Shown: positions 28,907 to 55,957, numbered from the stretch's first letter. The stretch: 64,000 nt of DNA from Candidatus Woesearchaeota archaeon (GCA_018303655.1 JAGVXT010000021.1:18811-82810); one strand, 5' to 3'. Translations and numbers: made by a program. The notes: a model not told the origin generated them from the sequence alone.

Positions 28907-28908
28907 TG

Positions 28909-29943
28909 TTAATCTAAATTTTCTACCTTCCTTAATTTTTTAAGGATTGGGATCTCTGACTCGTAAATTCTTTTTTTCCCATCCCCCAGATATAAGGGCA
29001 TCAATCTTGCCACCTCGCAAATGATCTCTATGCCTTTTCTTTCCAGGCTTGCAGACTGGTCGCTTCCGAACATGGATCTGTCCAGAGTTATATGGCGCTC
29101 TACCATGCAAGCTCCCAATGCTATGGCAATCAAAACCGGGTACACCCCTGGCTCATGGCCGCTGTAGCCAACAGGGCAATTGAAGAATTTCCTGAAGGTT
29201 TTTATGACATTTAAGTTATGCTCATTTGGCGGAGTGGGGTATGTTGAAGTGCAGTGCATGATGATTAGATTATTTTCCCCTAAAATATTTACAGCCTTTT
29301 GTATCTGCTCCATTGTGCTCATCCCAGTAGACAATATAATTGGCTTGTTGGTTGATTTTACTTTCATTAAAAGTTTTTTATTAGTCAGCATTGCTGATGC
29401 AATCTTATGGCATGACACATCAAATTTTTCCAGAAAATCAATGCTTTCTTCATCCCAGGCAGATGCAAACCAGATGATATTTTTTTTCCTGCAGTACTCA
29501 TCAATTTCCTTGTATTCATCATAGCCAAATTCTAATGCGCGCTTCAAGTCACCATTGGTTTTGCCAAAAGGGCTTTCTCTGGACATTTCCAGTTCTTCTT
29601 TTGGGTAAACTTTCTCAATAGTCCTCTTTTGAAATTTTACCGCATCACATCCGGATTCAGCTGCAATATCAATCAATTTTTTGCAAATTTCCATGTTTCC
29701 ATTATGGTTTATTCCAATTTCAGCTGTGATAAAAACTGGTTGGTCATGACCCACAAGCTTGCTTCCAATCATAACAGGCTTAGGGTTTCTTTCTTCGAGA
29801 TACATCTTCTCATAAATTTTCCAAGCCTGGGAAATTGCCTGAGTTTTGTTGGGGATAATCCCCTGGCTGTTGTTCACTAATTCAGTAATTTTTCTATTTA
29901 ACTCTTCTGGAATTGTTATTGACTCATATCCTTCTTTTGGCAT
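28909..29943 (-). CDS. neuB: NeuB-family PEP-condensing nonulosonate/ulosonate synthase with N-terminal RHH-like extension and no C-terminal SAF domain
   Basis: ITAEIGINHNGNMEICKKLIDIAAESGCDAVKFQK...ILSTGMS...HCTSTYPTP...VGYSGHE is the NeuB TIM barrel. The about 60 N-terminal residues SITIPEELNRKITELVNNSQGIIPNKTQAISQAWKIY fit a beta-alpha-alpha ribbon-helix-helix pattern. The protein ends right after the barrel. Confidence 0.8.
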   Translation of the reverse strand: MPKEGYESITIPEELNRKITELVNNSQGIIPNKTQAISQAWKIYEKMYLEERNPKPVMIGSKLVGHDQPVFITAEIGINHNGNMEICKKLIDIAAESGCDAVKFQKRTIEKVYPKEELEMSRESPFGKTNGDLKRALEFGYDEYKEIDEYCRKKNIIWFASAWDEESIDFLEKFDVSCHKIASAMLTNKKLLMKVKSTNKPIILSTGMSTMEQIQKAVNILGENNLIIMHCTSTYPTPPNEHNLNVIKTFRKFFNCPVGYSGHEPGVYPVLIAIALGACMVERHITLDRSMFGSDQSASLERKGIEIICEVARLMPLYLGDGKKRIYESEIPILKKLRKVENLD

Positions 29944-41126: not shown

Positions 41127-41723
41127 ATGCTGAAATTTTTCATTAAAGCCGTAACAAGAATTCTCTCCACTGATTTTTTTGCAAAGCTTCTGTTTGGGAT
41201 TGACTGCAGCAAAAGCACAGCTGGCTATCAGATAGGATTTTCAACAATTCTGATGAAAAAGGCGCTTAAAAAACTTGTAAAAAGCAATGACAAGGTGCTT
41301 GACATCGGCACTGGCGCATTGGCCATACACGGCATCTGGATAAGAAAGAATATTGGCGCTGATGTGGTTGCTACTGAGATAAGCGATAAATATATAGAAA
41401 GCGCGAAAAAGGTTGCAAAATATAATAATATTAACATCAAGATACTAAAATCAGACCTGTTCAAAGGGATAAAAGGCAGATTTGACTGGGTTATATTCAA
41501 TCCGCCATTCAGAAACAGGAAAGATTCCAACGGGTACAGGATAGTTGAAAGGCTTCTGAAGGATGCCCCGGAAAACACAAGGCTGATGATTGTTGTAAAT
41601 GCCTTTTACGCAAACCAAAAAAGGATTGAAGAAACCATTAAGAATAATGACTATGCGATAAAAGATACCATAACAAAATTTCTTAATCCGTCAAAAGTCT
41701 ATATAGTTGAAAAACAGGCTTAG
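41127..41723 (+). CDS. class I SAM methyltransferase with NPPF motif (HemK/RsmC-like small MTase domain)
   Basis: VLDIGTGALAIHG (motif I) and VIFNPPF (motif IV). Confidence 0.6.
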   Translation: MLKFFIKAVTRILSTDFFAKLLFGIDCSKSTAGYQIGFSTILMKKALKKLVKSNDKVLDIGTGALAIHGIWIRKNIGADVVATEISDKYIESAKKVAKYNNINIKILKSDLFKGIKGRFDWVIFNPPFRNRKDSNGYRIVERLLKDAPENTRLMIVVNAFYANQKRIEETIKNNDYAIKDTITKFLNPSKVYIVEKQA

Positions 41724-43909
41724 GATATTACCACGCGCTTTGCATTAGAAGGTATACCATACATAATTAGGTTCTTTCCAATAGGTTTGTATTGAACATC
41801 TGCATAATTTTTATTGTCTGTGGTGAACTGCATTTTATTTATTTTTTTCCTTATATGCTGCATTAAGGTGATGTCGGTATAAAAATAATTAGGCAGATTA
41901 TTTTCCAGCTCTATTGAAAACCTGCTTCCCTGCTTTTTTACCCTGCTTATAGCCAATGTTTCCCTTGCTTTATAGTATTTTATTATATCATCAGCGCTGG
42001 CAAACCATACGTCACTGTATTTCTGGAAGAAGTTAAACATGCCAGTAACGAATTTTGGGCATTCTTTATCATATTCCGGAACATGCCCTGATATAATCAT
42101 GTAGTCGCAGCCGCTTCTGTATCTTCTGATGAACTCTTGCCTGACCTTGGTGCAGTTTTTTTTATCAAACATCTCCCCTATGCAAACTCCCCAGAAAAGC
42201 TTTGCAGGAAGGAAAAAATCCAAAGGGGCATTAGGAATAGGCCATTCTCTTATCCATTGGATATACTTTGAGGCTGAAAATGCAACTTTCTCCATAGTGC
42301 CTTTTTCAGTTGCAATGCCGTATGGGGCAGCATAGGAAAAAACATGGGACAATGGGATTTCATTGCGCCATTTGCCAATCCATATTCTCTCAGAGCTTTG
42401 TATTTCGCTTGTTATCGCATCTGCATCGAGCCTGTAAATTCTTGGATGCGTATTTGTATGCAATAAATATGACAAATCCTTATTTTGAAATCTTTTTCTC
42501 AACGGCTTGCCTATTCCTAAAAAGCAAAATAAGGTGCTTAATAATGTCGAGAGCAAAGGATATTCTTTCAGATAAAATATTCTATTGCCGATATAGCAAA
42601 AGCGGTGATAGCCTATTCCCAAAGTCCTTGTGGCTATTGCCATTTGAACCCATCTCGGCATTTTTCCTTTTGCCCTGTAAAGGTAATCGTTTATCTTTGC
42701 GTCATCGGTGATTGCGTTAAATGCCATTTTTTTATTTGACTTCCATCTTGTTATGTAGGCGTTTGAAACAGGTTCTGAGCTCAGATGCACAATATTTCTT
42801 GTCTTAGGCTGGTAAGAGAAAATAGAAGCTATATCATCTATATTTTTTTTTTCAGTGTCAAAGTACATTCCTATTTTCCAGTAGGCTCTTAATGAATGTG
42901 CTGGATAATACCCCTGCGGCTTTCCGGTATACTCTTTTTTGTCAATCTGTTGCCAGTAAGGCCTTTTTGGCTCTGACATTGAATGCCAACTGGCTCCGAA
43001 GAAATTCTTTCCTTTTTCCATGTGAATTCCGTCATTCGGCAGCGCCAGATAAGGGCACATTGCAAAAAATGCATTTTTATCTTTAAAGCAGGCATAGTAA
43101 GGATGTTTTAATGTTGTTATATTTCCCCCATCCGTTTTATTTGAATAAAAAGAATTGGTAGATAATTCTTTATGGATATTATCAAGCCTGAACCAAACCA
43201 AAGAGTTCAGAAATTCAACCTTGTTTCCATCCATGTCCTTTGCTTTGTCGTATTCCATCTCTATCTCTGCTTTTGCAATCATATTTTTGCCGTTGGAGCT
43301 CCAGAAATAATATGTTATTGCTATCGGCAAATATCCTTCCTTTGCGCATTTGTTTCCAAAAATCTTCATTGTTCCGCTTATTTTAATTATCTTGATGATG
43401 TTGGAATCAGAAATAATGCTGAAGTTTGTATCTTGCATGTATTTTTGGAGAAATAAATTTCCTCCGGAAGTGACTAATTGCAGAGGCCCGTACTCATTTT
43501 TATTGATTTTTATTTTTTCTATAGAATAGCCGTTTTTTTCAAATAGAATTGATATTTTTTTTGTTGAAATAGCAAGATAAGAATTATTTTTCATTTCAAT
43601 TTTTTTTTTAGGAATTGCATATTTGCTTGGATTTTTTGATATACTATAAAAAATCCGGATGTATTTTATATTGCTTCTATTCGCTATGATTGCTATATTA
43701 TTTTGACTTATATTATTGGAATAATTCAATTTTTGGGCATAATCTTCCTTGTCTATTAAATCAAACAGCAGTTCTCTGCCGTTGTTGTCAAGAACCTTTA
43801 TGCTGCCAAAATCCGTATTCTCAGGAAATTTCAATTCATCAAAACTTACCAATAATAAAGAATTTTTAATTATTGGATAAACATTTAAAATTATACTTTC
43901 TTTTTTCAT
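41720..43909 (-). CDS. large hypothetical protein (729 aa), possibly glycan-modifying hydrolase/deacetylase-like
   Basis: No decisive motif. The C-terminal ...ISGHVPEYD...VWFASADDIIKYY loosely resembles deacetylase-type barrels and the C-terminus of the 15432-16982 protein. Confidence 0.3.
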   Translation of the reverse strand: MKKESIILNVYPIIKNSLLLVSFDELKFPENTDFGSIKVLDNNGRELLFDLIDKEDYAQKLNYSNNISQNNIAIIANRSNIKYIRIFYSISKNPSKYAIPKKKIEMKNNSYLAISTKKISILFEKNGYSIEKIKINKNEYGPLQLVTSGGNLFLQKYMQDTNFSIISDSNIIKIIKISGTMKIFGNKCAKEGYLPIAITYYFWSSNGKNMIAKAEIEMEYDKAKDMDGNKVEFLNSLVWFRLDNIHKELSTNSFYSNKTDGGNITTLKHPYYACFKDKNAFFAMCPYLALPNDGIHMEKGKNFFGASWHSMSEPKRPYWQQIDKKEYTGKPQGYYPAHSLRAYWKIGMYFDTEKKNIDDIASIFSYQPKTRNIVHLSSEPVSNAYITRWKSNKKMAFNAITDDAKINDYLYRAKGKMPRWVQMAIATRTLGIGYHRFCYIGNRIFYLKEYPLLSTLLSTLFCFLGIGKPLRKRFQNKDLSYLLHTNTHPRIYRLDADAITSEIQSSERIWIGKWRNEIPLSHVFSYAAPYGIATEKGTMEKVAFSASKYIQWIREWPIPNAPLDFFLPAKLFWGVCIGEMFDKKNCTKVRQEFIRRYRSGCDYMIISGHVPEYDKECPKFVTGMFNFFQKYSDVWFASADDIIKYYKARETLAISRVKKQGSRFSIELENNLPNYFYTDITLMQHIRKKINKMQFTTDNKNYADVQYKPIGKNLIMYGIPSNAKRVVIS

Positions 43910-45123
43910 TTTATTTGGGAAATTAATTCATTAAACTTTCTTCCTATCAAATCCCAGGAGTATATTTTTTTTACTTTCCTTTTGCCATTTAGTGCCAGGC
44001 TTTTCCTAAGCTTTTCATTATGCAATAATTTTATTATAGCAGCTGACAATTGCTTTGAATCTTTCTGCCTTACAAGAAGCCCAGTCTTGTTATTCTCTAA
44101 TATATCTGGGATTCCGCCGACATTGCTCCCTATTACACAAGTTCCTGATGCCAGCGCCTCAAGGAAGACAACTCCAAGCCCCTCCGTGTCGCCGCTTTCT
44201 GTAATTATGGACGGGCCTACAAATAAATCGGCAGTGGCGTAAAATTCCGGCAGATGCATGTTTTCCATTCCTCCGGCAAAGAGCACGTTTTTATCAAGCT
44301 TGAGCTTTTTTGTGAGAATTTCCAGGTTGCTTCTTTCCGGGCCATCCCCAACAACAACAAGCTTCGCTTCAGGAAATTCTTTCACAACATCTTTCATCGC
44401 CATTACAAGGTATTTAATTCCCTTTTTTTCAGCGAGCCTGCCTACGCTCAGGATAAGTTCTTTTTTTACACCAAGTTTTCTTCTTAAGCTTGTATTCCTG
44501 TTTTTCTGCGTGAATAGTTTCAGGTCAACGCCCATTGGAATTATATTTATTTTTTTTTGACCTGAGATTTTTTCCAATTCTTTTTTTGTATAACTGCTGT
44601 TCGCAGTGCAAAAATCCGAATTGCTCACAGCTAAATAGGAGAGGAATCTGAATAATCTGTTTTTCAGCGGAAAAACATCTCCGGCATGGGCTGTTACAAT
44701 ATAAGGAACTCCGAACATTTTTTTGCATAAATAAGCTAGAAAACCCTGGGGCACTGTCCAGTGCGCATGTATCACATTAATTTTCTCCTTTTTTATTAAT
44801 ATTATAGTATTAAAAAATTCAAAGGCAACAAGCAGCGGCAATTGAATGTAGGCAATTTTATATCTTTTTAAGTTTGCAAAAATCCCGCCTTCATAACAAA
44901 CCTTTTGCAGCTTGTACGGAAAGAAATAGCTGAACCTGTATATATTTACATTGTCAATAACTTCATGCTTCTTCGCTTTGTGGAAATGCGGCGCCAATGC
45001 AACTACCTTATGGCCATGGCTGGCCAACAGTCTGCTTAGCACAAAGACAAAATTCGGCTCCGTGTCATTCCTCCATCTAGGGAATGTCGTAGCTGTCACT
45101 AAGATGTTTTTATTGGACATCAA
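43906..45123 (-). CDS. glycosyltransferase family 4
   Basis: ...GVVFLEALASGTCVIGSNVGGIPDIL... is a canonical GT4 motif. Confidence 0.75.
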   Translation of the reverse strand: MMSNKNILVTATTFPRWRNDTEPNFVFVLSRLLASHGHKVVALAPHFHKAKKHEVIDNVNIYRFSYFFPYKLQKVCYEGGIFANLKRYKIAYIQLPLLVAFEFFNTIILIKKEKINVIHAHWTVPQGFLAYLCKKMFGVPYIVTAHAGDVFPLKNRLFRFLSYLAVSNSDFCTANSSYTKKELEKISGQKKINIIPMGVDLKLFTQKNRNTSLRRKLGVKKELILSVGRLAEKKGIKYLVMAMKDVVKEFPEAKLVVVGDGPERSNLEILTKKLKLDKNVLFAGGMENMHLPEFYATADLFVGPSIITESGDTEGLGVVFLEALASGTCVIGSNVGGIPDILENNKTGLLVRQKDSKQLSAAIIKLLHNEKLRKSLALNGKRKVKKIYSWDLIGRKFNELISQIK

Positions 45124-45162: not shown

Positions 45163-46653
45163 CTAGGAAGCCAAGACATTTCTTAAGGTTTTATATACTT
45201 TAAGCTCCGGTGTAAAGGAAAAAAGTCCGTGCTTCCATCTGAATTCCAGCCATTTCATGGCTATCGAATAGGGAAGCTTGTTCCATTTGGGAAAAAGGTA
45301 TTTGAACCAGTCTGAGTTTAAGTATGATATCTGCTGTATGTTGTCCAGGTATTTCCTGTCTGTTTCGCACAGGCTAAAATTAACCAAAGTGCTTCCCCAA
45401 TAAAACTTTGACCATTCTTCAAAGCTTTTTGGCGGCTCAAAGCCGTGCTTTATGGCAAGCTCGTACAAGGGAGTTCCGGGATATGGTGTGTAGATGCCTA
45501 TTCCATGGACCTGGGCTCTTGAATTTTCTTCCTTCAGTTTGACCACCATCCTGCACGTCATCTCTATTTCCTCTTTGGTTTCTGTCGGGAAGCCCATCAT
45601 AAAGCTGTACATTGGAGCTATATTATATTTTTTAGTGTCCCTGTTTACCTCATACACCTGTTCTGCCGTATTCGGCTTGTCAATCATCTTGAGTATTCTG
45701 GGGCTTGCGCTCTCTATTCCAAACCTGAATGAGGAGCATCCTGATTTCACTACCTTTTCCTTTATTTCATTTGGCATTTTTGTGTATGTAAAAACCGTGA
45801 TGCCGGAGGAAGTCCACTTTACATCCATGTTTTCCTTTATCATCAAGTCTGCAACATTTTCAACTCTCTTTAAATCCACGAAATAATTATCGTCATGCGC
45901 CCAGATTCCGTCAACCTTGAAGTCATCTACCACCTGCTTGAACATCTCAAAAGTTTTGTCAGCAGGCATGCCCCTCCAGTACATCCTGTTGAAAAAAAGA
46001 TTGTAGCAAAAAGAGCATTTATGCGGGCATCCCCTGCTGGTCACGCCTATGTCAAGCATCCGCCTTACTTCCCCGTCAAACATCATGCTTCCCTCATTGA
46101 TGTACTTTTCAACATCCACAAGGTGCCATGGAGTTGGCTTTATCTCGGCAAGGTTCATCATCTTTTCATCAGGAGTGTGAATTTTTTTTCCGTTTTCCTT
46201 AAAGGAGATGCTGTTTATTTTTTTTAGGTCTTCCTTGTTTTTTAGTGAATTGACAAGCTTCCTGAAGTTTATGTCGCCTTCGCCTCTCACAATTATATCT
46301 ACATATTCATTCTCCAAAGTCTGGTCCGCAAGCATGCTTGCATGAACGCCGCCCCACACAAGCGGTATCGTGTTATCAGCCAAAGACCTGATGTATTTTG
46401 CAGTCTCCAGCCCGTAATTGATCGGCAGGCCTGTCATTGCAGATATGGCAATGCATACAGGCTGTTGGTTTACATAACTGGTAAGCTTGCTTTTCCAGTG
46501 GGGATCCACCCTCTGGTCCAGGATTTTTACATTATATTCATCAAGAAGCTCCGAGGCGATAGACATCAGGCTATGTGGCGGAGAGAAAGCTGTTTTTTTG
46601 TTGGTTTCCCCTCCGGATGGATAGATTAATACTACATCAACACTTTCTGCCAT
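45163..46653 (-). CDS. cobalamin-binding (class B) radical SAM protein
   Basis: B12-binding-like N-domain. RGCPHKCSFCYN. The likely start is the internal ATG at 46651-46653 (MAESVDVVLIYP); the ORF track extends to 46776. Confidence 0.8.
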   Translation of the reverse strand: MAESVDVVLIYPSGGETNKKTAFSPPHSLMSIASELLDEYNVKILDQRVDPHWKSKLTSYVNQQPVCIAISAMTGLPINYGLETAKYIRSLADNTIPLVWGGVHASMLADQTLENEYVDIIVRGEGDINFRKLVNSLKNKEDLKKINSISFKENGKKIHTPDEKMMNLAEIKPTPWHLVDVEKYINEGSMMFDGEVRRMLDIGVTSRGCPHKCSFCYNLFFNRMYWRGMPADKTFEMFKQVVDDFKVDGIWAHDDNYFVDLKRVENVADLMIKENMDVKWTSSGITVFTYTKMPNEIKEKVVKSGCSSFRFGIESASPRILKMIDKPNTAEQVYEVNRDTKKYNIAPMYSFMMGFPTETKEEIEMTCRMVVKLKEENSRAQVHGIGIYTPYPGTPLYELAIKHGFEPPKSFEEWSKFYWGSTLVNFSLCETDRKYLDNIQQISYLNSDWFKYLFPKWNKLPYSIAMKWLEFRWKHGLFSFTPELKVYKTLRNVLAS

Positions 46654-46775
46654 ATAACTCGCTCTATGGTCATTCTTTAATAGAGTTTCGTATTTAAAGT
46701 TTTCTAAAACCTGCTGCAGCTGGTGCCAGTGATAAAACCAAATCTTTAAATAAAAAGCAGTCGCTTCTTTGGGCA

Positions 46776-48230
46776 ATGAGCAGCGTCAGGAGAATTGCCG
46801 TAAATACTGTATCTTTGGGCATTGCAGAGATAGTTGCAAAGGTTGCCCAATTCATTATTTTTGTTTATGTAGCCAGGCAATTGGGCAATGCTATGTTTGG
46901 AAGATTCAACTTTGCCTATTCATTTTCATTGATAGCGGTGATATTTGCCGATATAGGAATAAACTATATGATTATCAGGGAGATTTCCAGAAAAAAAGAG
47001 CTGTTGAATAAGTTCATTAGCAACTCTTTCTTAATAAAAATAGTGCTGGGCACTATAATTTTTATTTTAAGTGTTGCTGTTCTGAACGCTTTCAATTATC
47101 CCAAAGAGACCAGGATTCTGGTTTATTTGTTTTTAGTGTATATGTTTTTGCGCTCCAATACGGAGCTTCTATTTTCTGTTTTTAAGGCATTTGAAAGGAT
47201 GCACTATGAAGCTTTGATAAAAAGCTTGGGAATCATCTTGATTCTTATTTTAGGCATATACAGCCTGATGTTTGCGAAAAACATAATTTTTCTCGGCTTT
47301 CTGTATGTCCTGGTCGAGCTTTCAGTGTTCTTGGTGACTTTGGCCGTTGTGACGACTAAATTCGTGAGGATTAAACTGGAGGCTGACTTTGCCTTCATTA
47401 AGAAGATAATAAAGCTTGCATTCCCGTTTACATTGGCTGTTATTTTTTCAGGGGTTTATTTTTATATTGACACAATCATGCTTTCATTCATGAAGGGTGA
47501 TGTTCCTGTAGGGGTATACAGCGCTTCCTATAATATAACGTTGGCTTTGTTGTTTATACCAAGCATGTACACCTTTGCCATATACCCGATCCTGGCAAGC
47601 AGTTATGATAAATCTAAAAAAAAGGTTACTTTTATATATGAAAGATCTTTCAAGTACCTGTACATACTTGGCTTGCCTATAAGCATTGGCCTTTTTATTA
47701 TTGCAAGAAATATAATTCTTTTTGTTTACGGGCAGAATTATTCATCCTCAATAATTGCACTGAAAATTTTGGCATGGTTTGTGCTGTTTAAATTTTTAAG
47801 CTACCTGACCGGGATTGTGCTTTCCTCAATAAATATACAAAAATACAGGACCTACAGCCAGGGCACAGCTGCGTTTTTGAACCTTGGGCTGAACCTTATA
47901 TTAATCCCAAAATATAGCTTTATAGGGGCCGGAATTGCCACTTTAACAAGCGAGATAGTTTTATTTGCGCTTACTTTTGCCTTTGTTTCCATGCATTTTC
48001 ATGCTTTCAATGTGCTGAAAATTCTGTATAAGCCATTAATTGCTGCGGCTGTAATGGCAATTGCAGTTATTTTTTTGGAGCTGAACATGTTTTTGGTCAT
48101 AATAATCGGTGCTGTTGTGTACTTCACGGTTTTATTTTTGCTAAAATCATTTGATGAAAAAGATTATTCATTGATGAAAAAATTGATAAAAATAGGCAAT
48201 CCTGATAAACATGAAATGTCATCCAGCTAG
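46776..48230 (+). CDS. Wzx-like oligosaccharide flippase (MOP family)
   Basis: 484 aa with about 12-14 TM helices. Confidence 0.7.
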   Translation: MSSVRRIAVNTVSLGIAEIVAKVAQFIIFVYVARQLGNAMFGRFNFAYSFSLIAVIFADIGINYMIIREISRKKELLNKFISNSFLIKIVLGTIIFILSVAVLNAFNYPKETRILVYLFLVYMFLRSNTELLFSVFKAFERMHYEALIKSLGIILILILGIYSLMFAKNIIFLGFLYVLVELSVFLVTLAVVTTKFVRIKLEADFAFIKKIIKLAFPFTLAVIFSGVYFYIDTIMLSFMKGDVPVGVYSASYNITLALLFIPSMYTFAIYPILASSYDKSKKKVTFIYERSFKYLYILGLPISIGLFIIARNIILFVYGQNYSSSIIALKILAWFVLFKFLSYLTGIVLSSINIQKYRTYSQGTAAFLNLGLNLILIPKYSFIGAGIATLTSEIVLFALTFAFVSMHFHAFNVLKILYKPLIAAAVMAIAVIFLELNMFLVIIIGAVVYFTVLFLLKSFDEKDYSLMKKLIKIGNPDKHEMSSS

Positions 48231-49455
48231 AAAATATTCTGTTTTGGAAAGCATAAAAAACAGGAAAGAAGTTAAAGAAGATGCAGCAATAAATTTTTTG
48301 CAAGGAGAATTGCATGACATAGCCTATTCTTATGTTAACGGGGGTTTTTCCAGAAAGGGCTTTGTTTTTTATCCGTTGATGAAGGGTTTGTCGAACGAAA
48401 ATAAAAATAAAATAATTGGATTGAGAACAGTTGCTGAATTTCTTGATGAGCGTGGCTATGATTTCAGCAGCACGTTGGGCTTATTCAAAAAATTTAAGGT
48501 AAATGGAAAGAGCGCGCCTTTGTTTTTATCCTGTTTGTATAATGATTTTTCAAATGCAGGGAAGCCGAAAACAGAAACCAGAAGAGTGGGATGCGAAGAA
48601 TTTGACTTGAGCAGTTATCCAAGGGAAGATTATGGGTATTTGAAACCGGTAGTGGAGCTAAAGGGGTTTGCTGAAGGTAAGTTGGAGGAATATTTAGTGG
48701 ATCTGCACATACACGGGAGCATAGCCACCAGAGATTATGTAAGGGGCTGGAGCGACTTAGACACGCTTATCATAATAAAGAAAAGTGCCTTGGACAGTCC
48801 TAAGCTGCTTGTTAAGCTGAGGGATTTGCTTTACATGTCTAAAAAGTATTTTTACAAAATTGATCCTTTGCAGCACCATGGCCACATGGTTATAACAGAA
48901 TATGACCTTGATTATTACTGCCAAACATTTTTCCCTTTGATTTTATTTAAGTACTCAAAATCTGTTTTTGGGAAAAAAAGCCTAAATGTCAAAGTTAGAG
49001 ACAGCAAGACAGAGAATGTAGATCGCTTTTGCTCTTTCGCGGATTATTTCAGGAACCTGTACCTGAACAAGAAGTTTTCTATGGGCAGCTACGAGCTGAA
49101 ATTCCTTTTTCATGCCATTGCCCTGTTTCCGACATTGTACCTGCAGGCCAAGGAAATACATGTCTATAAAAAATTCTCATTTGGCATGGCAAGAAAGGAT
49201 TTTGATGAAGTGCTGTGGAATCCGATAGATGAAGTCACCAGTATAAGAAAGGAATGGAAGGCACCAGGCGAGATGCCATTTATTGGGACAATCTCAAGCA
49301 TAAATCCTTTGCTTGCTTATCAGATAAATTCAAAATATCTGGATATGTCCAATAAAATTCAGAGATTAAATAATTTTGACATTAAGAAGATTGTTGTGGG
49401 GATGTATGCGCTTTCGGAAAGTGCATTGAGCAAGATAAAGCCTAGTGATTCCTGA
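48211..49455 (+). CDS. Pol-beta superfamily nucleotidyltransferase-fold protein (414 aa)
   Basis: HIHGSIATRDYVRGWSDLDTLIII matches the minimal NTase motif hG[GS]-x9-13-Dh[DE]. Followed by a HHGH-type segment. Confidence 0.5.
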   Translation: MKCHPARKYSVLESIKNRKEVKEDAAINFLQGELHDIAYSYVNGGFSRKGFVFYPLMKGLSNENKNKIIGLRTVAEFLDERGYDFSSTLGLFKKFKVNGKSAPLFLSCLYNDFSNAGKPKTETRRVGCEEFDLSSYPREDYGYLKPVVELKGFAEGKLEEYLVDLHIHGSIATRDYVRGWSDLDTLIIIKKSALDSPKLLVKLRDLLYMSKKYFYKIDPLQHHGHMVITEYDLDYYCQTFFPLILFKYSKSVFGKKSLNVKVRDSKTENVDRFCSFADYFRNLYLNKKFSMGSYELKFLFHAIALFPTLYLQAKEIHVYKKFSFGMARKDFDEVLWNPIDEVTSIRKEWKAPGEMPFIGTISSINPLLAYQINSKYLDMSNKIQRLNNFDIKKIVVGMYALSESALSKIKPSDS

Positions 49456-50647
49456 AAAGGCTCCTAAATGAAAATAATATTCTTCTGAAAGCAGAACTGC
49501 TTGTTATGAGAATGAATGCGAGTATTAGCTTGTTCTTGAAGCCTCTTTCAGTCTTGTAGCCCAAGGGGAAGAAGCATGGGTAATGAGAGTGCTTAAGCTT
49601 ATTGGCGTACTCAACCTGATCATTTAATATCTGGATTCTTTTTTTTATGATTGGGTCAATATTGCTCTGCATGCATTTTATGGAAAGCCTTTTTTTTATA
49701 TATCTGCTTAGCCTTCCGTCAGCGCTTGAATAGCAGCATAATTGATTCAATAGGCTTATGGGAAGTATGGAGTAAAAGTTCTTGTATTTCACAAAGTGAT
49801 TTATCATCTGGCTTACCGCTCTTTCATTGTTCCATTCCTTCACGAATGAAATCCTGTTTTTGTTGCCCTTAAATATGATGTTTTGTTTTTTTGCGTTTAT
49901 AAGGTTGTTTTTATCCCTTGATAGGAATGCGTTGAATTCCGTAACAAAGTCCATTGACACATAAACCGCCTCTTTCAATAAATCGAAAAGCTCTGCTTCT
50001 CTTGGCTTTTCATTTAGCCTAAACCAATTTTTCCTGAGGTTGTTTACCCTCCCAGAAAAATTTTTCCATGCTGGTTTTTTTAAGCCGGCAATTTCATTGA
50101 AAATATTGAAACTGTGACCTAATGCATTGAGCCTTACCAGAACCATCCTGGCATTAAGCCTTTTTGAAAGGAGTATGTAAAGGTAATCAACCGGAAAATG
50201 CCTTAAAATAACGTCTGCTGTAAGGCAAGTTTTGATTTTTTTAAGCTCTGATTTTGAAGGCGTGTGGATGGCAATTTCCTTTCCGTATATTTTTATGAAA
50301 TTTGAGTTTGGATAGATGTATCTCATGTTTTTCATGATATCCTCAGTTATGATAAAAAAAGGATGAAAAACCAGATAGCTTGAGTCTTTATCGGTGTAAG
50401 TTCTCCTAAGAAATGATGGAAGCCTTGAGCCTTCTTTCAGCACAAATATAAGGTCTATGTCGGATATTCCTGGGACGCTTACATGCCCGAATGTATAGAC
50501 TGAAAGTATTTCCTTTGTTTTTTCTGCTTTGCGCCTTATCTTATCCAGCACACGTTCATAATCTTTTAGCCCGTACTTAATGGGGTGCGCATAGAATGAA
50601 ATATCTTCCTTTTTTAAATTCTCAATGTAGCGGTTTTTTATTTTCAT
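49442..50647 (-). CDS. Pol-beta superfamily nucleotidyltransferase-fold protein, paralog of 48211..49455 (401 aa)
   Basis: FGHVSVPGISDIDLIFVLK (GS..DxD) followed by ...VFHPFFIITED.... Same architecture as the neighbour. The two genes are convergent with a 14-bp 3' overlap. Confidence 0.45.
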   Translation of the reverse strand: MKIKNRYIENLKKEDISFYAHPIKYGLKDYERVLDKIRRKAEKTKEILSVYTFGHVSVPGISDIDLIFVLKEGSRLPSFLRRTYTDKDSSYLVFHPFFIITEDIMKNMRYIYPNSNFIKIYGKEIAIHTPSKSELKKIKTCLTADVILRHFPVDYLYILLSKRLNARMVLVRLNALGHSFNIFNEIAGLKKPAWKNFSGRVNNLRKNWFRLNEKPREAELFDLLKEAVYVSMDFVTEFNAFLSRDKNNLINAKKQNIIFKGNKNRISFVKEWNNERAVSQMINHFVKYKNFYSILPISLLNQLCCYSSADGRLSRYIKKRLSIKCMQSNIDPIIKKRIQILNDQVEYANKLKHSHYPCFFPLGYKTERGFKNKLILAFILITSSSAFRRILFSFRSLFRNH

Positions 50648-50653
50648 GCAGCA

Positions 50654-51454
50654 CTATCTGTACCTTATCGGGTTTCTCTTTTTCATTTCTGCGTACAAGT
50701 AATTGAATTCCTCTCCTGTTATTTCTTTGTTGTTCAGCTTTTTCAGTATGATGCCGAAGTTATAGGGCCCTTCCGCAACCCTGAAGTAATCTATTACCTT
50801 GAATCCAAGAAACTGGAAATATGTTTCATGAAGGCTGCTTATGTAAGCTCCATGGCAATGCACGCTGTAACCATCCTTTTTTGTAAGATCAGATAGAATG
50901 GCATAAATTTCCATGGCCCTGCAAACGTTTGAATGCTTTTCGTCCTCGATGCTTGGGTTGTCGTGCAGCAGGTTGTTTGAAAAGGTTATGTCAAATTTTT
51001 TGCTTGCTTTTGAACCAAAATTTTCCAGACTCAGAATTTTTCCATTGTCTTTTGCCATCAAGCTGGTGGTGTTTGCCCTTGTCTTGCCTAAGAAGCCCAA
51101 ATGTTCGGTTTTTGCATCAACAGGCAATATTTCCAATAAATCAATGCCTGAGAAATCAACGTTTGACAGTACCTTTCTAAGCTCGCTTATTTTTGACTCT
51201 TCAATCTCAAAAATGTTTTTTGCCAGGTTAAATTCAACAAATGGCTCTATAATCGTGAAAAATTCATTTAACCTGTTCTTGGCAAGAAAAGAGCAGTTTA
51301 TGATATTCAAGAGCAAAGGGTCATAGCTGGAATTCAATATTTTTGGAAATTTGTCCTTTTCAAACAAGACTATTCCGTTTCTTGTTTTTTCATGAAAAAT
51401 TTGCACTTTGCTGTTAATTGTGTCATCAATGCCTTTCCTGATGTCAACTTCCAT
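50654..51454 (-). CDS. hypothetical protein (266 aa)
   Basis: No recognisable motif. Confidence 0.3.
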   Translation of the reverse strand: MEVDIRKGIDDTINSKVQIFHEKTRNGIVLFEKDKFPKILNSSYDPLLLNIINCSFLAKNRLNEFFTIIEPFVEFNLAKNIFEIEESKISELRKVLSNVDFSGIDLLEILPVDAKTEHLGFLGKTRANTTSLMAKDNGKILSLENFGSKASKKFDITFSNNLLHDNPSIEDEKHSNVCRAMEIYAILSDLTKKDGYSVHCHGAYISSLHETYFQFLGFKVIDYFRVAEGPYNFGIILKKLNNKEITGEEFNYLYAEMKKRNPIRYR

Positions 51455-51582: not shown

Positions 51583-52986
51583 ATGAAAGTATTGCTTATA
51601 CTGCCTCCAAATATAGGAAGGTATGTTGTTGCTACAGTCCCGCATGCCGGCCTTGCTTATCTTGCAGCTATTTTGGAAAGGGATGGCCATCAGGTTGAAA
51701 TACATGACATGAGGATTTATTCTGATGACAGGCTTTTGGCAAAAAAGATTGAAAGCTTCAAGCCAAGGCTTATAGGCCTTTCAACAGCAAGCATCGGGTA
51801 TAAGATGTCTTATGAAATAATCAACACGATAAAGAAAAAATACCCGAATATCCCATTGGCCATCGGTGGGTCATACGCTTCCACGGTTCACACAAAAGTT
51901 TTGGAGGATACTAAAGCAGATTATGCTGTTTATGGGGAAGGGGAACAAACCTTTTTGGACTTGGCAAAAGGAATTGCTCCGAGCAAAATAAAGGGGCTTA
52001 TCTGGAGGGATAACGGGGAGATTATAATGAATCCGCCTTATCCGCTTGTGCAGGATCTTGACAGCATGCCTTTTCCAAAATATGAGAAATTTGAATTAAG
52101 CAAGATGCTTGAGAAAAGGATTCCAATAGTAAGCTCAAGAGGATGCCCGAACAGGTGCACTTTTTGCTCCATACAGCTTGTCATGGGATATCCGTTCAGG
52201 ACCCGAAGCCCTGAAAATGTCTTGAAGGAAATTGAATACTGGTATAAGAAAGGCTACGACACATTTGAGTTCAGCGATGATAATTTCACCTTCAACATGC
52301 CGAGGGCAGAAAAGATATGCGACTTAATAATAGAAAGCGGCATGAAAATAAAGATAATTTTTGGCAATGGCTTGAGGGCTGACAGGGTTAACGCAAATCT
52401 GCTTAAAAAATTAAGGGAAGCAGGATGCATCTGGATAGGCTACGGGCTTGAGACTTCTGATTTGCACAGCCTGGAGCTGTTGAAGAAAGATTTGGATGTA
52501 AACCAGCTGAAATGGGCTGTCAAGGAGTCAAAAAAGCTGGGAATTGAAGTGCAGGTCCATAACATAATCGGAACGCCTGGGTCAACATTTGACACTTTTA
52601 TGAAAGACATTAAGCTTGCGGATGACTTGGGCATTGACCAAGTAAGATTCTTTAACATGATTCCGTACCCCGGAACTGAGATGTTTGAATGGGTAAAGCA
52701 GAATGGCAGGTTTTTGCACCAGCCTGATGAATATCTGAACAGCCTGGATTACTGGGCTGAAGAGCCTGTTTTTGAGACAGATGACTTCACAAGAGAAGAA
52801 AGAATCAAAGCTTTCCGCATAGGCCAGGACAAGGTTATGGAGCTTCATTTAAGAAGGCACTTTGGCAAGGGCTTGGGAAGAATGGGCTTTAAATTATACA
52901 AGAACAGCCTGATAAAAAAGTATGGCATGAAGCCGGCTACAAAAGCTTGGATTATGCTCAAAAGATTAAGAATAAAGCAGCATTAA
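51583..52986 (+). CDS. cobalamin-binding (class B) radical SAM protein
   Basis: [10 protein letters not shown]...[23 protein letters not shown]. Confidence 0.8.
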
Positions 52987-53924
52987 TCCTGATTTTTATT
53001 ATATTTAAAAAAATCTATAGTTTTTCTCAAGCCTTCTTTTAACTCGATTTTCGGCTCCCATTTCAGCATTTTTTTTGCCCTTGATATGTCAGGGCATCTT
53101 ACATGCGGATCATCTATTGGCAATGGCCTGAAAACAATTTTGCTCCTGCTTTTTGTAAGCTCTTTTATTAATTCAGCAAACTCGAGAATGGTGTGTTCTT
53201 CGGGATTTCCAAGATTGACAGGCTCGCTTATGTTTGAAAGCATTAAATTGTATATGCCCTCAACCAGATCGTTCACATAGCAGAAGCTTCTTGTCTGGTT
53301 ACCTTTTCCATAAACGGTCATCGGTTCGTTTTTTAATGCCTGCGTTATGAAGTTCGGCACAACCCTTCCGTCATTTTTTCTCATCCTTGGGCCATAAGTG
53401 TTGAAAATCCTGACAATTTTTGTGTCAAGTTGGTGTATCCTATGGTAGGCCATTGTAAGCGCTTCCGCAAACCTTTTGGCTTCGTCATAGCATCCCCTTA
53501 TTCCAATGGGGTTGACATTGCCCCAGTAAGTTTCAGGCTGCGGATTTACCAGTGGATCGCCGTAAACCTCTGATGTTGAGGCAAGCACATACTTTGATTT
53601 TTTAGCCAATGCCAATCCAAGAGTGTTATGTGTGCCAAGGCTTCCAACCTTTAATGTCTGTATAGGTATTTTCTGGTAGTCAATCGGGGATGCAGGCGAT
53701 GCAAAGTGCAGCACAAAATCAAGCTTTTCATTGACAACAATATGCTTGCTTACATCATGGTAAATATAAGTAAAATCTTTGCTGCTTCTCAAGTGGCTTA
53801 TGTTGCTTATGCCGCCTGTTGCAAGATTGTCCATGGCGATTACCTTGTATCCTTTGCCTAAAAGAAACTCGCAAATGTGGCTTCCGATAAATCCTGCTCC
53901 TCCTGTTATTAATGCTGTTTTCAT
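52983..53924 (-). CDS. UDP-glucuronate decarboxylase (UDP-xylose synthase)-like NAD-dependent epimerase/dehydratase
   Basis: [22 protein letters not shown]...STSEVYGDP...YDEAKR is the UXS/ArnA-type signature. Confidence 0.75.
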
Positions 53925-54655
53925 TTTTGCTTGTAATATCTGTTTGCCTTTTCCAGCTGCTCAATGCTTCCTATATCATACCATTTCTTATCTGTAACAA
54001 AGGAATGCACCTGCTCCCTTTTGTGAAGCCATTCTATGAAATTGCCGGTTTTGTCAGGGTTGTTACCCTGCTCAATGTATTTTTTTATTAAGGGTATTGT
54101 CTTCTTTGGGAACAGATAAATTCCTGTTGAAGCAAGTGTTGATTTTGGGGCAACAGGCTTTTCCTCAAAATTCACGATGATGCCATTATCTATATCAACA
54201 ATTCCATAATGCTTCGCTAATTTAATGTCCTTTACATCATAAAGGACGATAACATTTGATTTTTTCTTTTTGAAGAAATTGGCAGCATCCTCTAAGGGCA
54301 TCTCAAAAAGGTTGTCGCCTGCAACCACTATGATATCATTGTCAAGGTTTTTTTTGGTGATGGTGTGGTGTATGTCGCCCAAAGCGCCAAGCCTGTCTTC
54401 ATTGCTTTTGGTGCCGTCGTTTATTATTTCAATCGGGTTTTCTGCATTAAAATTGTTGATCCATTTTTTGAAATGCTGCTCGAATTTGTCGTTTGTGACA
54501 ATGTAGATTTTATTGATTGAATCTATCTTGCTTAATTTTTTTATTATATGTTCTATTATGGGCTTTCCTGCAACATTCAGCAACGGCTTTGGAGTGTTTT
54601 CTGTCAGGGGATACAGCCTTGTTGCATATCCTGCTGCCAATATTATCGCGTCCAT
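53921..54655 (-). CDS. sugar-phosphate nucleotidyltransferase (short RmlA/GalU-like)
   Basis: [26 protein letters not shown] is the G-x-G-T-R-L...K-P signature. Confidence 0.75.
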
Positions 54656-55957
54656 TTAGTGCACTTCCTTTCTTCCAATGCTGATGTACGTGAAGCCATC
54701 ATTTTTCATGTCTTCTAGCCTATAAATGTTCCTACCGTCAATGATTAATGGATGCTTCATCAGGGATTTTATTCTTTTCATATCAATTTCTTTGAACTCG
54801 TCCCATTCCGTGACTATGACAAGAGCGTCTGCATCTTTTGCGGCGTCGTAAGTGTTGCTGCAATATTCAATATTTTTCAGTATGCCTTTTGATTTTTCCA
54901 TTGCCTTCGGATCATATGCCTTTATTTTTGCCCCTTCTTTCTGCAACTCTGTTATGATGTCAACAGAAGGCGCGAATCTCATGTCATCAGTGTTTGGCTT
55001 GAATGCCAGCCCCAGAATGCCGATTGTCTTGCCCTTTACAATCCACAATGCCTTTTCTATCTTGCTTACAAAATGATTTCTTTGATTATTGTTTATTTCC
55101 TGAACTGCCTTGAGCAGACTGAAATCATATCCGAATTTTTCTGATATCCTTATGAATGCTTCTGCATCCTTTGGAAAGCAAAAGCCCCCATATCCAATTC
55201 CTGCGTCAAGGAAGCTTCTTCCGATTCTTTTGTCATAGCCCATTCCTTCCGCCACTTTTTCGACATCAGCACCTGCTGCCTCGCAGATGCTTGCTATTGC
55301 ATTTATGAAGGATATTTTTGCTGCAAGAAATGAGTTTGATGCGTGCTTTATGATTTCAGCGCTTTTTATGTCTGTGAATATGATTGGAGCCTTTAATGGT
55401 GAGTACAGTTTTTTCATTATATCTTTTGCCCTTTCGCTTTCGCACCCAATCACTATCCTGTCAGGATGCATGAAGTCATTGACAGCGCTTCCTTCCCTCA
55501 AAAATTCGGGATTGCTGACAACATCAAAATCAACTTTGTGCGCATTGTAGCTTTTTATTGACTTTGCAATTTTATCCCCCGTTTCAACAGGCACGGTGCT
55601 TTTCTCAACAATTATCTTGTAAGAGTCCATTACATCCGCAATAGTTCTTGCAACGTCTTCAACGTAGCTCAAATCAGCTTCCCCATTCTTCTTTGGAGGA
55701 GTGCCTACGCAGATGAATATTATATCTGATTCTTTTATTGATTTTTTAAGGTCTGTTGTGAAGCTTATTTTTCCTTTTTTCCTGTTTTTTATTAATAACT
55801 CCTCCAAACCGGGCTCAAAGATTGGAATAATATTGTTATTCAGATTCTTTATCTTGTCCTCTTCTATATCAACGCAGACAACATCGTTTCCAAGCTCTGC
55901 AAAGCAAGCCCCCGTGACCAAGCCAACATAGCCTGCTCCCACAACTGCAATTTTCAT
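54656..55957 (-). CDS. ugd: UDP-glucose 6-dehydrogenase
   Basis: MKIAVVGAGYVGLVTGACFAELGNDV. GGFCFPKD catalytic Cys motif. 433 aa. Confidence 0.85.
   Translation of the reverse strand: MKIAVVGAGYVGLVTGACFAELGNDVVCVDIEEDKIKNLNNNIIPIFEPGLEELLIKNRKKGKISFTTDLKKSIKESDIIFICVGTPPKKNGEADLSYVEDVARTIADVMDSYKIIVEKSTVPVETGDKIAKSIKSYNAHKVDFDVVSNPEFLREGSAVNDFMHPDRIVIGCESERAKDIMKKLYSPLKAPIIFTDIKSAEIIKHASNSFLAAKISFINAIASICEAAGADVEKVAEGMGYDKRIGRSFLDAGIGYGGFCFPKDAEAFIRISEKFGYDFSLLKAVQEINNNQRNHFVSKIEKALWIVKGKTIGILGLAFKPNTDDMRFAPSVDIITELQKEGAKIKAYDPKAMEKSKGILKNIEYCSNTYDAAKDADALVIVTEWDEFKEIDMKRIKSLMKHPLIIDGRNIYRLEDMKNDGFTYISIGRKEVH

Follow-up and report, generated by a model that had tools for sequence, protein, structure and literature searches.

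The two neighbouring genes described here, A and B, constitute an obligate, widespread and sometimes fused two-component module of surface-polysaccharide clusters, and their recognition as such a module is the main new result of this analysis. A homolog of B adjoins A in 44 out of 44 A-anchored loci; conversely, A is adjacent to B, fused to it or at most 3.3 kb away in 66 of the 67 informative B-anchored metagenome loci. The A~B fusion proteins found number at least 12, every one of them in the order A then B, and the pair spans DPANN, further archaea and six or more bacterial phyla. Both proteins have a nucleotidyltransferase (NTase) fold with intact metal-binding motifs, and their glycan-locus context recurs in two domains of life. 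As to function, we propose, with a probability that we would put slightly below one half (about 0.45), that A and B form a heterodimeric, KNTase-like two-subunit enzyme, which would transfer a nucleotide-derived phospho group to a sugar of a lipid-linked glycan unit.

The pair and its genomic neighbourhood

The window, i.e. the whole stretch of 64,000 nucleotides from the MAG of a Candidatus Woesearchaeota archaeon, carries A at 48211..49455 on the + strand (414 aa; AF2 pLDDT 92.9; predicted soluble) and B at 49442..50647 on the - strand (401 aa; AF2 pLDDT 90.9). These are exactly the two convergent ORFs delimited by an earlier reading of the DNA, made from the sequence alone (hereafter the sequence-only reading), and they share 14 nt at their 3′ ends. 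The start of A is overlapped by 20 nt by the gene of a Wzx-type flippase (Polysacc_synt; 46776..48230, +), and gene C (50654..51454, -; 266 aa) lies directly upstream of B on the same strand. The module is flanked by genes for two B12-binding radical SAM enzymes (B12-rSAM), one at 45163..46776 (-), likely of the class-B methyltransferase type, and the second at 51583..52986 (+); a GT4 glycosyltransferase is encoded at 43906..45123 (-). Together with genes for UDP-Glc dehydrogenase, sugar-1-P NTP-transferases, SDR, DegT and NeuB, the Wzx and GT4 genes bear out the glycan-locus setting that the sequence-only reading had proposed.

The convergent layout is a rearrangement that is shared by close relatives of the window; A>B in tandem, translationally coupled, is the usual arrangement and was observed in 61 loci, where the median overlap is 11 nt. 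In two proteins, P0319 and P0248, a methyltransferase (MTase) domain is fused to A; three lineages have MTase genes inserted between A and B, and some fusions carry TPR repeats. Family A falls into about 1,600 clusters at 50% identity; neither Pfam nor NCBIfam has a specific family for it, and our literature search found no paper on it. That A and B make up an obligate, sometimes fused two-component module had been missed by the sequence-only reading.

The neighbours of the pair in 113 non-redundant loci include GT4 (52 loci), Wzx (40), SDR (31), sugar-1-P NTP-transferase (21), UDP-Glc dehydrogenase (20), DegT (12) and AsnB-like genes (11); Wzy_C, acetyltransferases and carbamoyltransferase were also met. 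The module is found in archaeal loci and also in bacterial operons of the O-antigen/capsule type, with Lunatimonas salinarum KCTC 42988 among its cultured carriers; in most of the archaeal loci the Wzx flippase is directly upstream of A. An MTase or B12-rSAM gene lies within three genes of A/B in 34 of 73 loci, and B12-rSAM genes are found near the pair in 25 of the 113 loci, nearly all of which are of the window's type. Gene C, for which no match to a known family was obtained, is kept beside A/B in 22 loci of the window's type, and all of those with a known taxon belong to DPANN-like archaea. GT4 is the most frequent neighbour class, but the accompanying GT4s do not form one orthologous subfamily, and no donor-synthesis gene is conserved with A/B among the neighbours in the 113 loci. 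Together these two observations suggest that the module is a self-contained cassette using a housekeeping donor.

Fold and conserved residues

Both proteins had been assigned a Pol-beta NTase fold in the sequence-only reading, which pointed out the motifs GS-x10-SDLD in A and G-x5-G-x-SDID in B. The motifs are present as described, and a relaxed regular expression matches exactly A and B among the 57 called genes, about 0.6 matches being expected in shuffled proteins; by itself, a short motif of this kind is weak evidence. The assignment is supported independently by family-level Pfam matches (NTP_transf_2 is matched by 32 of 46 A homologs, Polbeta by 15 of 36 B homologs) and by Foldseek, for which every top match of A and of B is an NTase. 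The superfamily motif, hG[GS] followed 9-13 residues on by [DE]h[DE]h, appears as H-G169-S170-x11-D182-L-D184 in A and as F-G54-x8-D63-I-D65, with a variable second position, in B. No further Pfam domain was found in either protein, in keeping with the earlier description of them.

Archaeal forms of A, and only these, start with a helical domain (about residues 7-115), which is followed by the Pol-beta NTase core (about residues 145-262) and by a C-terminal helical domain (about residues 266-409; 49006..49437, +) with the invariant basic residues K297, K320 and R346, plus W349. In the AF2 model, helices at 145-158 and 197-217 accompany strands at 162-168, 184-189, 225-229 and 256-262. The catalytic core motif H168-G169-S170-x10-S181-D182-L-D184 (48712..48762, +) aligns with the NTP_transf_2, CdnD and ANT(3'') cores; in the locus-set alignment, which includes archaea and bacteria, all 44 sequences have G169, S170, S181 and D182, and 43 of them have D184. 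A family-signature motif, D218-P-L-Q-H222-H223-G224 (48862..48882, +), stands immediately ahead of the third core beta-strand, at the place expected for the third metal ligand or base. D218 and H223 are invariant in a pattern-independent alignment of A, and D-P-L-Q-H-H-G is kept in a further A alignment and also in the locus set, the 44 sequences of which were, however, partly recruited by this very pattern.

B begins with the Pol-beta NTase core (about residues 27-122; in the AF2 model a helix at 27-42 and strands at 47-52, 66-70, 98-101 and 118-122) and continues with a helical domain (about residues 132-351) in which R167 and R205 are invariant across archaea and bacteria. Its catalytic core motif, G54-x5-G60-I-S62-D63-I-D65 (50453..50488, -; in full G54-H-V-S57-V-P-G60-I-S62-D63-I-D65), keeps S62, D63 and D65 in all 44 sequences and G54 in 43 of them; position 55 is variable (E, G, S, D, K), which makes the [GS] position degenerate. 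The catalytic acidic residues, whose absence from alignments the sequence-only reading had named as contrary to its proposal, are conserved in both families (D182, D63 and D65 throughout, D184 with one exception). The candidates for a third carboxylate are not strictly conserved: E230 of A, after the signature motif, is found in 32/44 sequences and E102 of B in 27/44. The equivalent in B of H222/H223 of A is H95 (50363..50365, -; 43/44 conserved), followed by I-I-T-E102. D218 and H222/H223 of A and H95 of B are located just upstream of these candidates and may substitute for the third carboxylate. A His-rich segment had been ascribed to both proteins; it exists in A (Q-H222-H223-G-H225, with H222 and H223 invariant) but not in B, where H95 is the one conserved His. 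Archaeal forms of B end with a hydrophobic/amphipathic tail (residues about 370-398; 49454..49540, -), which contains one weakly hydrophobic segment (374-392; Kyte-Doolittle 1.74), shows two helices in the AF2 model and may be a membrane-association helix; bacterial B homologs end at about HMM position 350.

The paralogy of A and B, also put forward in the sequence-only reading, is convincing on profile comparison but remote. It is undetectable pairwise (BLASTP of A against B gives nothing significant, E = 0.77), the HMMs of the two families show no cross-matches, and with narrow profiles hhalign reaches a marginal probability of 39%; with broad profiles, however, the probability rises to 92% in local and 96.6% in global mode, over 216-267 columns at 16-18% identity. 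R346/W349 of A align with R205/W208 of B.

Structural relatives and proposed function

In Foldseek searches of the PDB, the best 10-13 matches of A are AAD(9), AadA, ANT(3'')(9) and KNTase (probability 0.6-0.94) and the best six of B are ANT(3'')(9) and AadA (probability up to 0.99), with MntA also among the top matches of B. A and B align over 270-335 columns to whole AadA, AAD(9) and ANT(3'')(9) chains (probability 0.84-0.99, E 0.01-0.1, TMt 0.31-0.44). The likeness to these aminoglycoside nucleotidyltransferases (ANTs) is architectural and modest (TM 0.25-0.44): a profile search of the PDB gave an ANT(3'') match with E = 0.05 over the core only, no ANT model of NCBIfam matches A/B, and no Pfam match was obtained beyond the generic core. 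AadA, ANT(3'')(9), AAD(9) and KNTase (ANT(4')) have, like A and B, a Pol-beta NTase domain followed by a helical domain, with a G-S...D-x-D metal and nucleotide site and basic residues coming from the helical domain. ANT enzymes adenylylate sugar hydroxyls of aminoglycosides, the acceptors being hydroxyls of amino sugars, and KNTase is a dimer in which the active sites are formed by both subunits, a parallel to the pairing that we infer for A and B. The module differs from ANTs, which are monomers or homodimers, by being an obligate hetero-pair or fusion, by the family-specific D-P-L-Q-H-H-G motif and the R-x-x-W motif shared by A and B, by the extra N-terminal domain of A and the C-terminal tail of B in archaeal forms, and by being encoded in glycan biosynthesis operons instead of resistance or mobile-element contexts.

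In the reading that we favour, A and B would be the subunits of one enzyme, a heterodimer of anciently diverged paralogs built like aminoglycoside O-nucleotidyltransferases, with a helical domain for substrate binding next to the Pol-beta NTase domain, and they would, by analogy with the KNTase dimer, pack with active sites shared between the subunits. Such an enzyme would belong to a Wzx-dependent glycan pathway and act on its cytoplasmic side. A common donor, NTP or an NDP-linked group, would be bound via Mg2+ at the S-D-x-D dyads, the G-S loop and the conserved Lys/Arg, and an NMP or a phospho-substituent would be transferred to a sugar hydroxyl of the lipid-linked repeat unit, which would be flipped afterwards; in many lineages, a methyltransferase would belong to the same sequence of steps. 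A more far-reaching proposal, which we consider speculative and rather unlikely, is that the pair represents an unrecognised class of glycan-tailoring enzyme, a self-sufficient hetero-dimeric or fused NTase in which one subunit would activate a small phospho-compound with NTP and the other transfer it, or which would directly nucleotidylylate a sugar. On this proposal, the surface glycans of DPANN archaea and of diverse bacteria would bear a decoration of the phosphodiester or nucleotidyl type, in many cases methylated afterwards, and we know of no enzyme family so far assigned to such a modification.

Alternative explanations

The sequence-only reading had likened A and B to the LicD/fukutin family, in which case a phospho-alcohol (glycerol-P, ribitol-P or phosphocholine) would be transferred from a CDP-alcohol onto the glycan with release of CMP. 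LicD/FKRP enzymes do have the same NTase fold and hG[GS]...DxD signature and act on glycans (PMC6965139; PMC11666461); location of the pair in glycan loci is as expected for them, and the recurrent methyltransferase association would suit a modifiable phospho-substituent. As a statement of family membership, however, the analogy did not survive. The profile comparison with LicD that this reading had recommended was negative, since none of 82 family members (46 A and 36 B) matches PF04991 at E ≤ 0.1, nor do the window's own A and B at E ≤ 1; PDB profile searches do not return FKRP, and FKRP, fukutin and ANT(2'')-Ia are missing from the top 50 Foldseek matches of the A or the B model, where clade-4 ANTs dominate. 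The structural clade of AadA and KNTase is distinct from the one that contains FKRP and ANT(2'')-Ia (PMC11646218; PMC6965139). A CDP-alcohol synthase is usually encoded near LicD-type genes; among the neighbours of A/B in the 113 loci, none (TagD, TarI or LicC-like) is conserved, and the only nearby cytidylyltransferase (28193-28906) is a CMP-nonulosonate synthetase, to judge by its pairing with NeuB, which the other CTP_transf_3 genes seen share. The TagF-like gene invoked in support (17013-18983) does exist (Glyphos_transf, 40.5 bits), but it is separated from A/B by 30 kb that include an IS element, and it is not conserved together with them. LicD enzymes have not been described as obligate two-protein modules and, to our knowledge, none occurs as an obligate paralog pair. 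We thus regard a LicD/fukutin-type enzyme as unlikely, while LicD-like chemistry, with a sugar hydroxyl receiving a phospho-linked group from a nucleotide donor, is plausible by analogy. Equally doubtful in our opinion is that A/B makes an activated precursor by nucleotidylylating a phosphate-bearing small molecule or lipid or, in a variant, that one subunit makes NDP-X from NTP and X-P and the other transfers X-P to the glycan. Two non-identical intact active sites are conserved, with a full G-S in A and a degenerate second position in B, and self-sufficiency would explain the absence of a conserved donor-synthesis gene. Tam41, an NTase-fold enzyme that makes CDP-diacylglycerol, is very weakly among the structural matches of B, but with E = 1.3 this match is not significant; moreover, the known nucleotidylyltransferases of sugar phosphates and alcohol phosphates have other folds (RmlA/GlmU-like or cytidylyltransferase), the loci already contain genes of this kind, and nothing points directly to different roles of the A and B subunits.

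A regulatory or conflict system, be it an AMPylating pair directed at a pathway protein, an MNT/HEPN-like toxin-antitoxin or a CD-NTase-type defence in variable glycan islands, seems to us very unlikely. KNTase-type C-terminal domains are HEPN-related, TPR repeats are present on some fusions, and the core motif weakly resembles those of CdnD, CD-NTase cyclases, MntA and DrrA/SidM; but the latter matches span only the 45-65-residue GS...DxD core with ≤ 25 bits, the HEPN motif Rx4-6H is not conserved (R172 of B is found in 26/44 sequences), and in distant phyla A/B is embedded, co-directional and translationally coupled in glycosyltransferase operons. MNT/MntA (PDB 2rff) and the CD-NTases (CdnD, CdnE) share with A/B the Pol-beta core motif, with weak HMM and Foldseek matches over the core. 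A CBASS cyclase was rejected, given a PADLOC match of 21.4 bits over residues 150-196 of A (47 residues) and of 14.6 bits for B, and given the glycan neighbours; Foldseek probabilities of A against CdnE and CdnC are 0.11-0.18. No effector or Cap genes occur in the A/B loci, no mobile-element association was seen, and a search for phage or plasmid homologs of A/B found none, so the dismissal of CBASS in the sequence-only reading was right. A type VII MNT-HEPN system was rejected too: with 414 and 401 aa, A and B exceed MNT proteins (about 100-150 aa) three- to fourfold in size, both partners are NTases and neither is a HEPN toxin, and the one homolog that matches the NCBIfam MntA model does so with a score of 16.5 bits, the cutoff being 60. 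The best structural matches are provided not by MNT antitoxins, CD-NTases or LicD/FKRP but by the aminoglycoside O-nucleotidyltransferases AadA, AAD(9) and KNTase. Finally, one or both proteins could be catalytically dead scaffolds with a purely structural NTase fold, e.g. adaptors placing GT4s and Wzx at the membrane, which we find hardly credible. The third carboxylate is not strict in either family, B is without the [GS] residue, archaeal B has its possible membrane-association tail, and TPR repeats on some fusions are protein-interaction modules; yet pseudoenzymes usually lose active-site residues, whereas here G169-S170, the S-D-x-D dyads, H222-H223/H95 and a number of Lys/Arg stay strictly invariant at an overall identity of only about 20-25%, as is expected for active sites.

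Two convergent genes encode NTase-fold proteins

The two genes lie in the window at 48211-49455 on the forward strand (A, 414 aa) and at 49442-50647 on the reverse strand (B, 401 aa), exactly where the sequence-only reading had placed them. They are convergent, with a 14-nt overlap of their 3' ends, and the start of A shares 20 nt with the upstream gene for a Wzx flippase (46776-48230). At the protein level the window is 100% identical to 'hypothetical protein J4234_04320' of a Candidatus Woesearchaeota MAG. The motifs quoted in that reading were both found: GS-x10-SDLD in A (G169 to D184) and G-H-V-S-V-P-G-I-S-D-I-D in B (G54 to D65). A relaxed regular expression for the motif matches A and B alone among the 57 called genes of the window; since about 0.6 matches are expected in shuffled proteins, the motif is weak by itself and independent support is required. 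There is no hydrophobic segment in A, and a single weakly hydrophobic one at the C-terminus of B (374-392), which is confined to archaeal forms.

That both proteins have an NTase fold, as had been proposed, is now virtually certain, being supported by family-level Pfam searches, profile searches of PDB sequences and Foldseek. With single sequences, Pfam gave 16.5 bits for NTP_transf_2 in A, below the cutoff of 21, and no match for B. At the family level, NTP_transf_2 is matched by 32 of 46 A homologs (best E = 2e-6) and Polbeta by 13; for B the figures are 4 and 15 out of 36. In profile searches of PDB sequences the core of A aligns to CdnD, ANT(3'') and DrrA, and that of B to the minimal NTase 2rff. 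The best Foldseek matches in the PDB are AAD(9) (6xz0, 6sxj), AadA (5lpa, 5g4a, 5luh, 6fzb), ANT(3'')(9) (7uy4) and KNTase (1kny) for A, and ANT(3'')(9) (probability 0.99), AadA and MntA antitoxins for B. Because the scores are modest (E of 0.01-0.1, TM-scores of 0.25-0.44), we take A and B to resemble AadA, AAD(9), ANT(3'')(9) and KNTase in their architecture, and claim no orthology. A resistance ANT is ruled out by the absence of any match to a curated ANT model in NCBIfam and by the biosynthetic context.

The two proteins had also been called paralogs, which stands only in a remote sense: BLASTP of A against B finds no relationship (E = 0.77), and hhalign with a first, narrow pair of alignments gave a probability of 39% across a 64-column core. 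When the profiles were broadened to 354 A and 94 B sequences, the local alignment reached 92% (E = 6e-7, 216 columns, 18% identity, A 122-369 against B 7-228) and the global one 96.6%. The alignment runs on through the helical domain, and the equivalent positions are H168-G-S170 of A and F53-G-H55 of B, S181-D-L-D184 and S62-D-I-D65, H222-H223...I-T-E230 and H95...I-T-E102, and I-R346-K-E-W349 and L-R205-K-N-W208. Given this remote match and the lack of any cross-match between the two family HMMs, A and B are, as judged from their profiles, two distinct families that arose by an ancient duplication.

Conservation was counted across 44 sequences per family. In A, G169, S170, S181, D182, D184, D218, L220, H222, H223, G224, P242, K297, K320 and R346 are kept in 43 or 44 sequences and W349 in 42; the genome loci were recruited by the D-P-L-Q-H-H-G motif itself, but D218 and H223 showed no variation even in alignments A1 and A3, which had been built independently of the pattern. 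In B, Y30, G54, S62, D63, D65, H95 and R167 are kept in 43 or 44 sequences and R205 in 41. The putative metal-binding dyads are thus retained in both subunits. Conservation of the canonical third carboxylate is incomplete (E230 of A in 32/44, E102 of B in 27/44) and the position following G54 of B varies; the two predicted sites are therefore not equivalent and depart from those of textbook NTases.

A and B form an obligate pair

When 185,579 species genomes were scanned with a degenerate pattern for family A, a procedure limited to loci that match the pattern, 40 loci were found. Their archaeal sources are Woesearchaeota, Nanoarchaeia, Methanosarcinales-labelled MAGs, one Methanomassiliicoccales MAG and one Nitrosopumilaceae MAG; the bacterial ones are Bacteroidota, a gammaproteobacterium, Algimonas, Spirochaetes, Aminicenantes, Verrucomicrobiota and Pirellulaceae. 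The sole cultured isolate seen among the carriers is Lunatimonas salinarum KCTC 42988 (Bacteroidota, locus L041), in which the pair is found at about 291.4-293.3 kb of NZ_JACVCV010000005.1. Together with the window and three further distinct loci from an exact-protein look-up, this gave 44 A-anchored loci, and a B homolog adjoins A in all 44 (HMM searches of six-frame ORFs). The reciprocal test started from B in a separate, independent collection of metagenomes and comprised 80 loci: A lies within 300 nt of B in 61, is fused to it in 2 and lies within 3.3 kb in 3, and in 13 the locus is truncated beside B, so that A is near or fused to B in 66 of the 67 informative loci.

In a set of 113 non-redundant loci, the prevailing layout is a tandem with A first (61 loci, median overlap 11 nt); the others are convergent (18), tandem with one to three genes between (9), B before A (5), fused (6) or incomplete through truncation (14). 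The convergent arrangement of the window is nearly restricted to its close relatives and thus looks like a clade-specific rearrangement. Six further full-length fusions of 786-1122 aa were found within the best 150 of the 1,633 representatives returned by an exhaustive search, so that at least 12 fusions are known, the 610-aa protein of L042 and P0199 among them; A precedes B in all 12. Genes that stay adjacent in both archaea and bacteria, are coupled in translation and have fused repeatedly classically encode subunits of one enzyme, and we are confident that A and B are functionally and physically coupled. Recognizing them as one two-subunit (or fused) enzyme predicts a heterodimer with shared active sites of the KNTase kind.

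Some loci deserve separate mention. L085, whose B-like ORF (6209-7501) is flanked by 2.5 kb or more on both sides, is the sole informative one without a detectable A; it may hold a divergent A, be degenerate or represent a solo B. The proteins P0319 and P0248 have class-I SAM methyltransferase-like N-termini fused to A, and TPR repeats follow the fusion of A and B in P0237, P0255 and L092:3516-6851. The A/B loci of MAGs titled 'uncultured Methanosarcinales archaeon' (L011, L012, L014, L016-L018, L021, L023) encode proteins with 33-50% identity to those of Woesearchaeota (best aligned segment) in a synteny of DPANN type, and these bin labels may be wrong.

A large family without a name

The pair is not a one-off, since family A spans two domains of life. 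At 50% identity the exhaustive profile search returned 1,633 representative clusters, of which 1,441 remain at E <= 1e-10 and 881 at E <= 1e-30, and a word-indexed search at least 1,001 bacterial-type homologs. Nearly all of the ~1,000 homologs come from metagenomes, and their source names are all 'hypothetical protein', 'predicted nucleotidyltransferase' or similar. No NCBIfam family exists for A or B, the only Pfam matches are to the generic core, and literature searches found no paper that describes the pair. The MeOPN transferases Cj1421/Cj1422 of Campylobacter (~600 aa) were considered as possible relatives; there is no Campylobacter protein among the 120 matches listed from the word-indexed search. 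The NTase fold itself is familiar: what is new is an obligate hetero-pair dedicated to glycan loci and with signature motifs of its own.

The pair is a self-contained cassette in glycan loci

Few parts of microbial genomes vary as much, or are understood as poorly, as the loci for surface glycans, which govern how cells interact with hosts, phages and symbionts. In DPANN archaea, Woesearchaeota included, which spend their lives attached to other cells, the surface plays a central part in the way of life. In the window, A and B are preceded by genes for a GT4 (43906-45123), a B12-radical SAM enzyme (45163-46776) and the Wzx flippase; B is followed in map order by gene C (50654-51454, 266 aa, reverse strand, hence upstream of B on the same strand), a second B12-radical SAM gene (51583-52986) and genes for an SDR, a sugar-1-P NTP-transferase and a UDP-Glc dehydrogenase (52983-55957). 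Clustering of the neighbours in the 113 loci, where genes were called by a simple longest-ORF heuristic, gave the following raw counts, taken within these loci alone: GT4 52, Wzx 40, SDR 31, B12-radical SAM 25, C 22, NTP_transferase 21, UDP-Glc dehydrogenase 20, DegT 12 and AsnB-like 11. B12-radical SAM genes and C are nearly confined to window-type loci. Other neighbours seen are PglD-like, GNAT and FemAB-like acyltransferases, Wzy_C, an ABC exporter, a carbamoyltransferase and, in a few loci only, NeuB/CMP-NulO genes. A role of A and B in glycan biosynthesis is thus highly probable.

A three-gene module with a specific GT4 was rejected, the GT4s near the pair being non-orthologous between lineages (35-95 bits), and no conserved donor-synthesis gene (cytidylyltransferase or similar) was found among the neighbours of the 113 loci. 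From these two results it follows that the pair is a self-contained cassette, inserted in the manner of tailoring enzymes into Wzx-type glycan loci whose other genes vary. A methyltransferase is a recurrent, though not universal, partner: genes for a methyltransferase separate A from B in Algimonas and Bacteroidota and, less clearly, in a spirochaete, and a methyltransferase or B12-radical SAM gene lies at most three genes from the pair in 34 of the 73 loci with enough context (again a raw count within these loci).

Possible function and alternatives

KNTase is a homodimer in which each NTase domain faces the helical domain of its partner. By analogy, A and B would form a heterodimer with each NTase domain opposite the partner's helical domain, and a common nucleotide donor would be bound through Mg2+ at the S-D-x-D dyads, the G-S loop and conserved Lys/Arg residues. 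The enzyme would transfer a nucleotide-derived phospho-containing group, which could be an NMP, as with ANTs, or a phospho-substituent, as with LicD, onto a sugar hydroxyl of a lipid-linked repeat unit before flipping by Wzx, with a methyltransferase often acting in sequence. We give this reading as a whole a probability of about 0.45. It points to a possible, so far unrecognized decoration of glycans of the phospho- or nucleotidyl type, linked to methyltransferases.

The sequence-only reading had favoured the LicD/fukutin family, with a TagF-like gene as support. That gene is real (Glyphos_transf, 40.5 bits), but it is 30 kb away and is not co-conserved with the pair. No PF04991 match was found in 82 proteins of the A and B families, and FKRP is absent from their PDB sequence-profile and Foldseek matches. 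The catalytic domain of FKRP has its nearest counterpart in ANT(2'')-Ia (PMC6965139); AadA and KNTase, the proteins that A and B do resemble, belong to another structural clade (PMC11646218). The LicD assignment is therefore rejected on Pfam and fold evidence; a LicD label would be wrong, as would the aminoglycoside-resistance label that fold-based annotators might apply, and a strictly LicD-like CDP-alcohol transferase is unlikely. Activation of a precursor, or a two-step enzyme that both activates and transfers, is to be judged similarly improbable. A regulatory, toxin-antitoxin or defence role, for which the shared NTase core might speak, is very unlikely: matches to CBASS and MNT-HEPN proteins are limited to the core motif (at most 25 bits, and core-motif noise only in PADLOC), neither an effector nor a HEPN partner is present, and plasmid and phage collections contain no homologs of A or B. 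CBASS and MNT-HEPN are both rejected, the former having rightly been dismissed from the sequence. A non-catalytic scaffold is hardly to be expected either.

Other features of the glycan region

Gene C lies beside the pair in 22 window-type loci, whether B is convergent or in tandem. Its product has no relatives in Pfam, NCBIfam, PADLOC or the PDB; a 'FDITFSNNLLHD' stretch in it recalls, at the level of sequence, a class-I methyltransferase motif. Four B12-binding radical SAM enzymes are encoded in the glycan region of the window (13443-14963, 19985-21466, 45163-46776 and 51583-52986), two of them flanking the A/B module, in what is a small-genome DPANN archaeon; the related loci L008 and L009 have up to three such genes in a row. 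This set suggests that glycan precursors undergo radical reactions of an unusual sort, methylation or otherwise.

The TagF-like protein (656 aa, with an Epimerase_2-like region as well) is encoded in the segment 17013-19862 on the reverse strand, where a DDE_Tnp_1 transposase gene (19008-19862) directly adjoins its gene; an insertion sequence thus interrupts that part of the region. A nonulosonic-acid block at 26821-29943 (reverse strand) comprises a class-III aminotransferase (26821-28164) and a CMP-NulO synthetase-like cytidylyltransferase (28193-28906) that pairs with a NeuB-family synthase (28909-29943); NeuB, CTP_transf_3 and NeuC-like genes are near the pair in the bacterial loci L025, L093 and L112. 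A NodU/CmcH-type carbamoyltransferase (21540-23390, forward strand), hinting at O-carbamoylated sugars, also occurs near the pair in the bacterial L036, L039 and L044.

Three other proteins of the window were noted. One of 729 aa (41720-43909, reverse strand), with no Pfam match and no hydrophobic segment, is conserved beside the GT4 in at least seven window-type loci. A polytopic membrane protein of 618 aa (32862-34718, reverse strand), with many hydrophobic segments and no Pfam match, adjoins another flippase of Wzx-like type, the second one (31342-32832); it is a candidate for a Wzy-like polymerase or for a protein resembling oligosaccharyltransferases. Finally, a protein of 970 aa (8087-10999, reverse strand), in which only weak matches to glycine-rich and Ig-like domains are seen, is a candidate surface or S-layer-type protein on which the glycosylation machinery would act.
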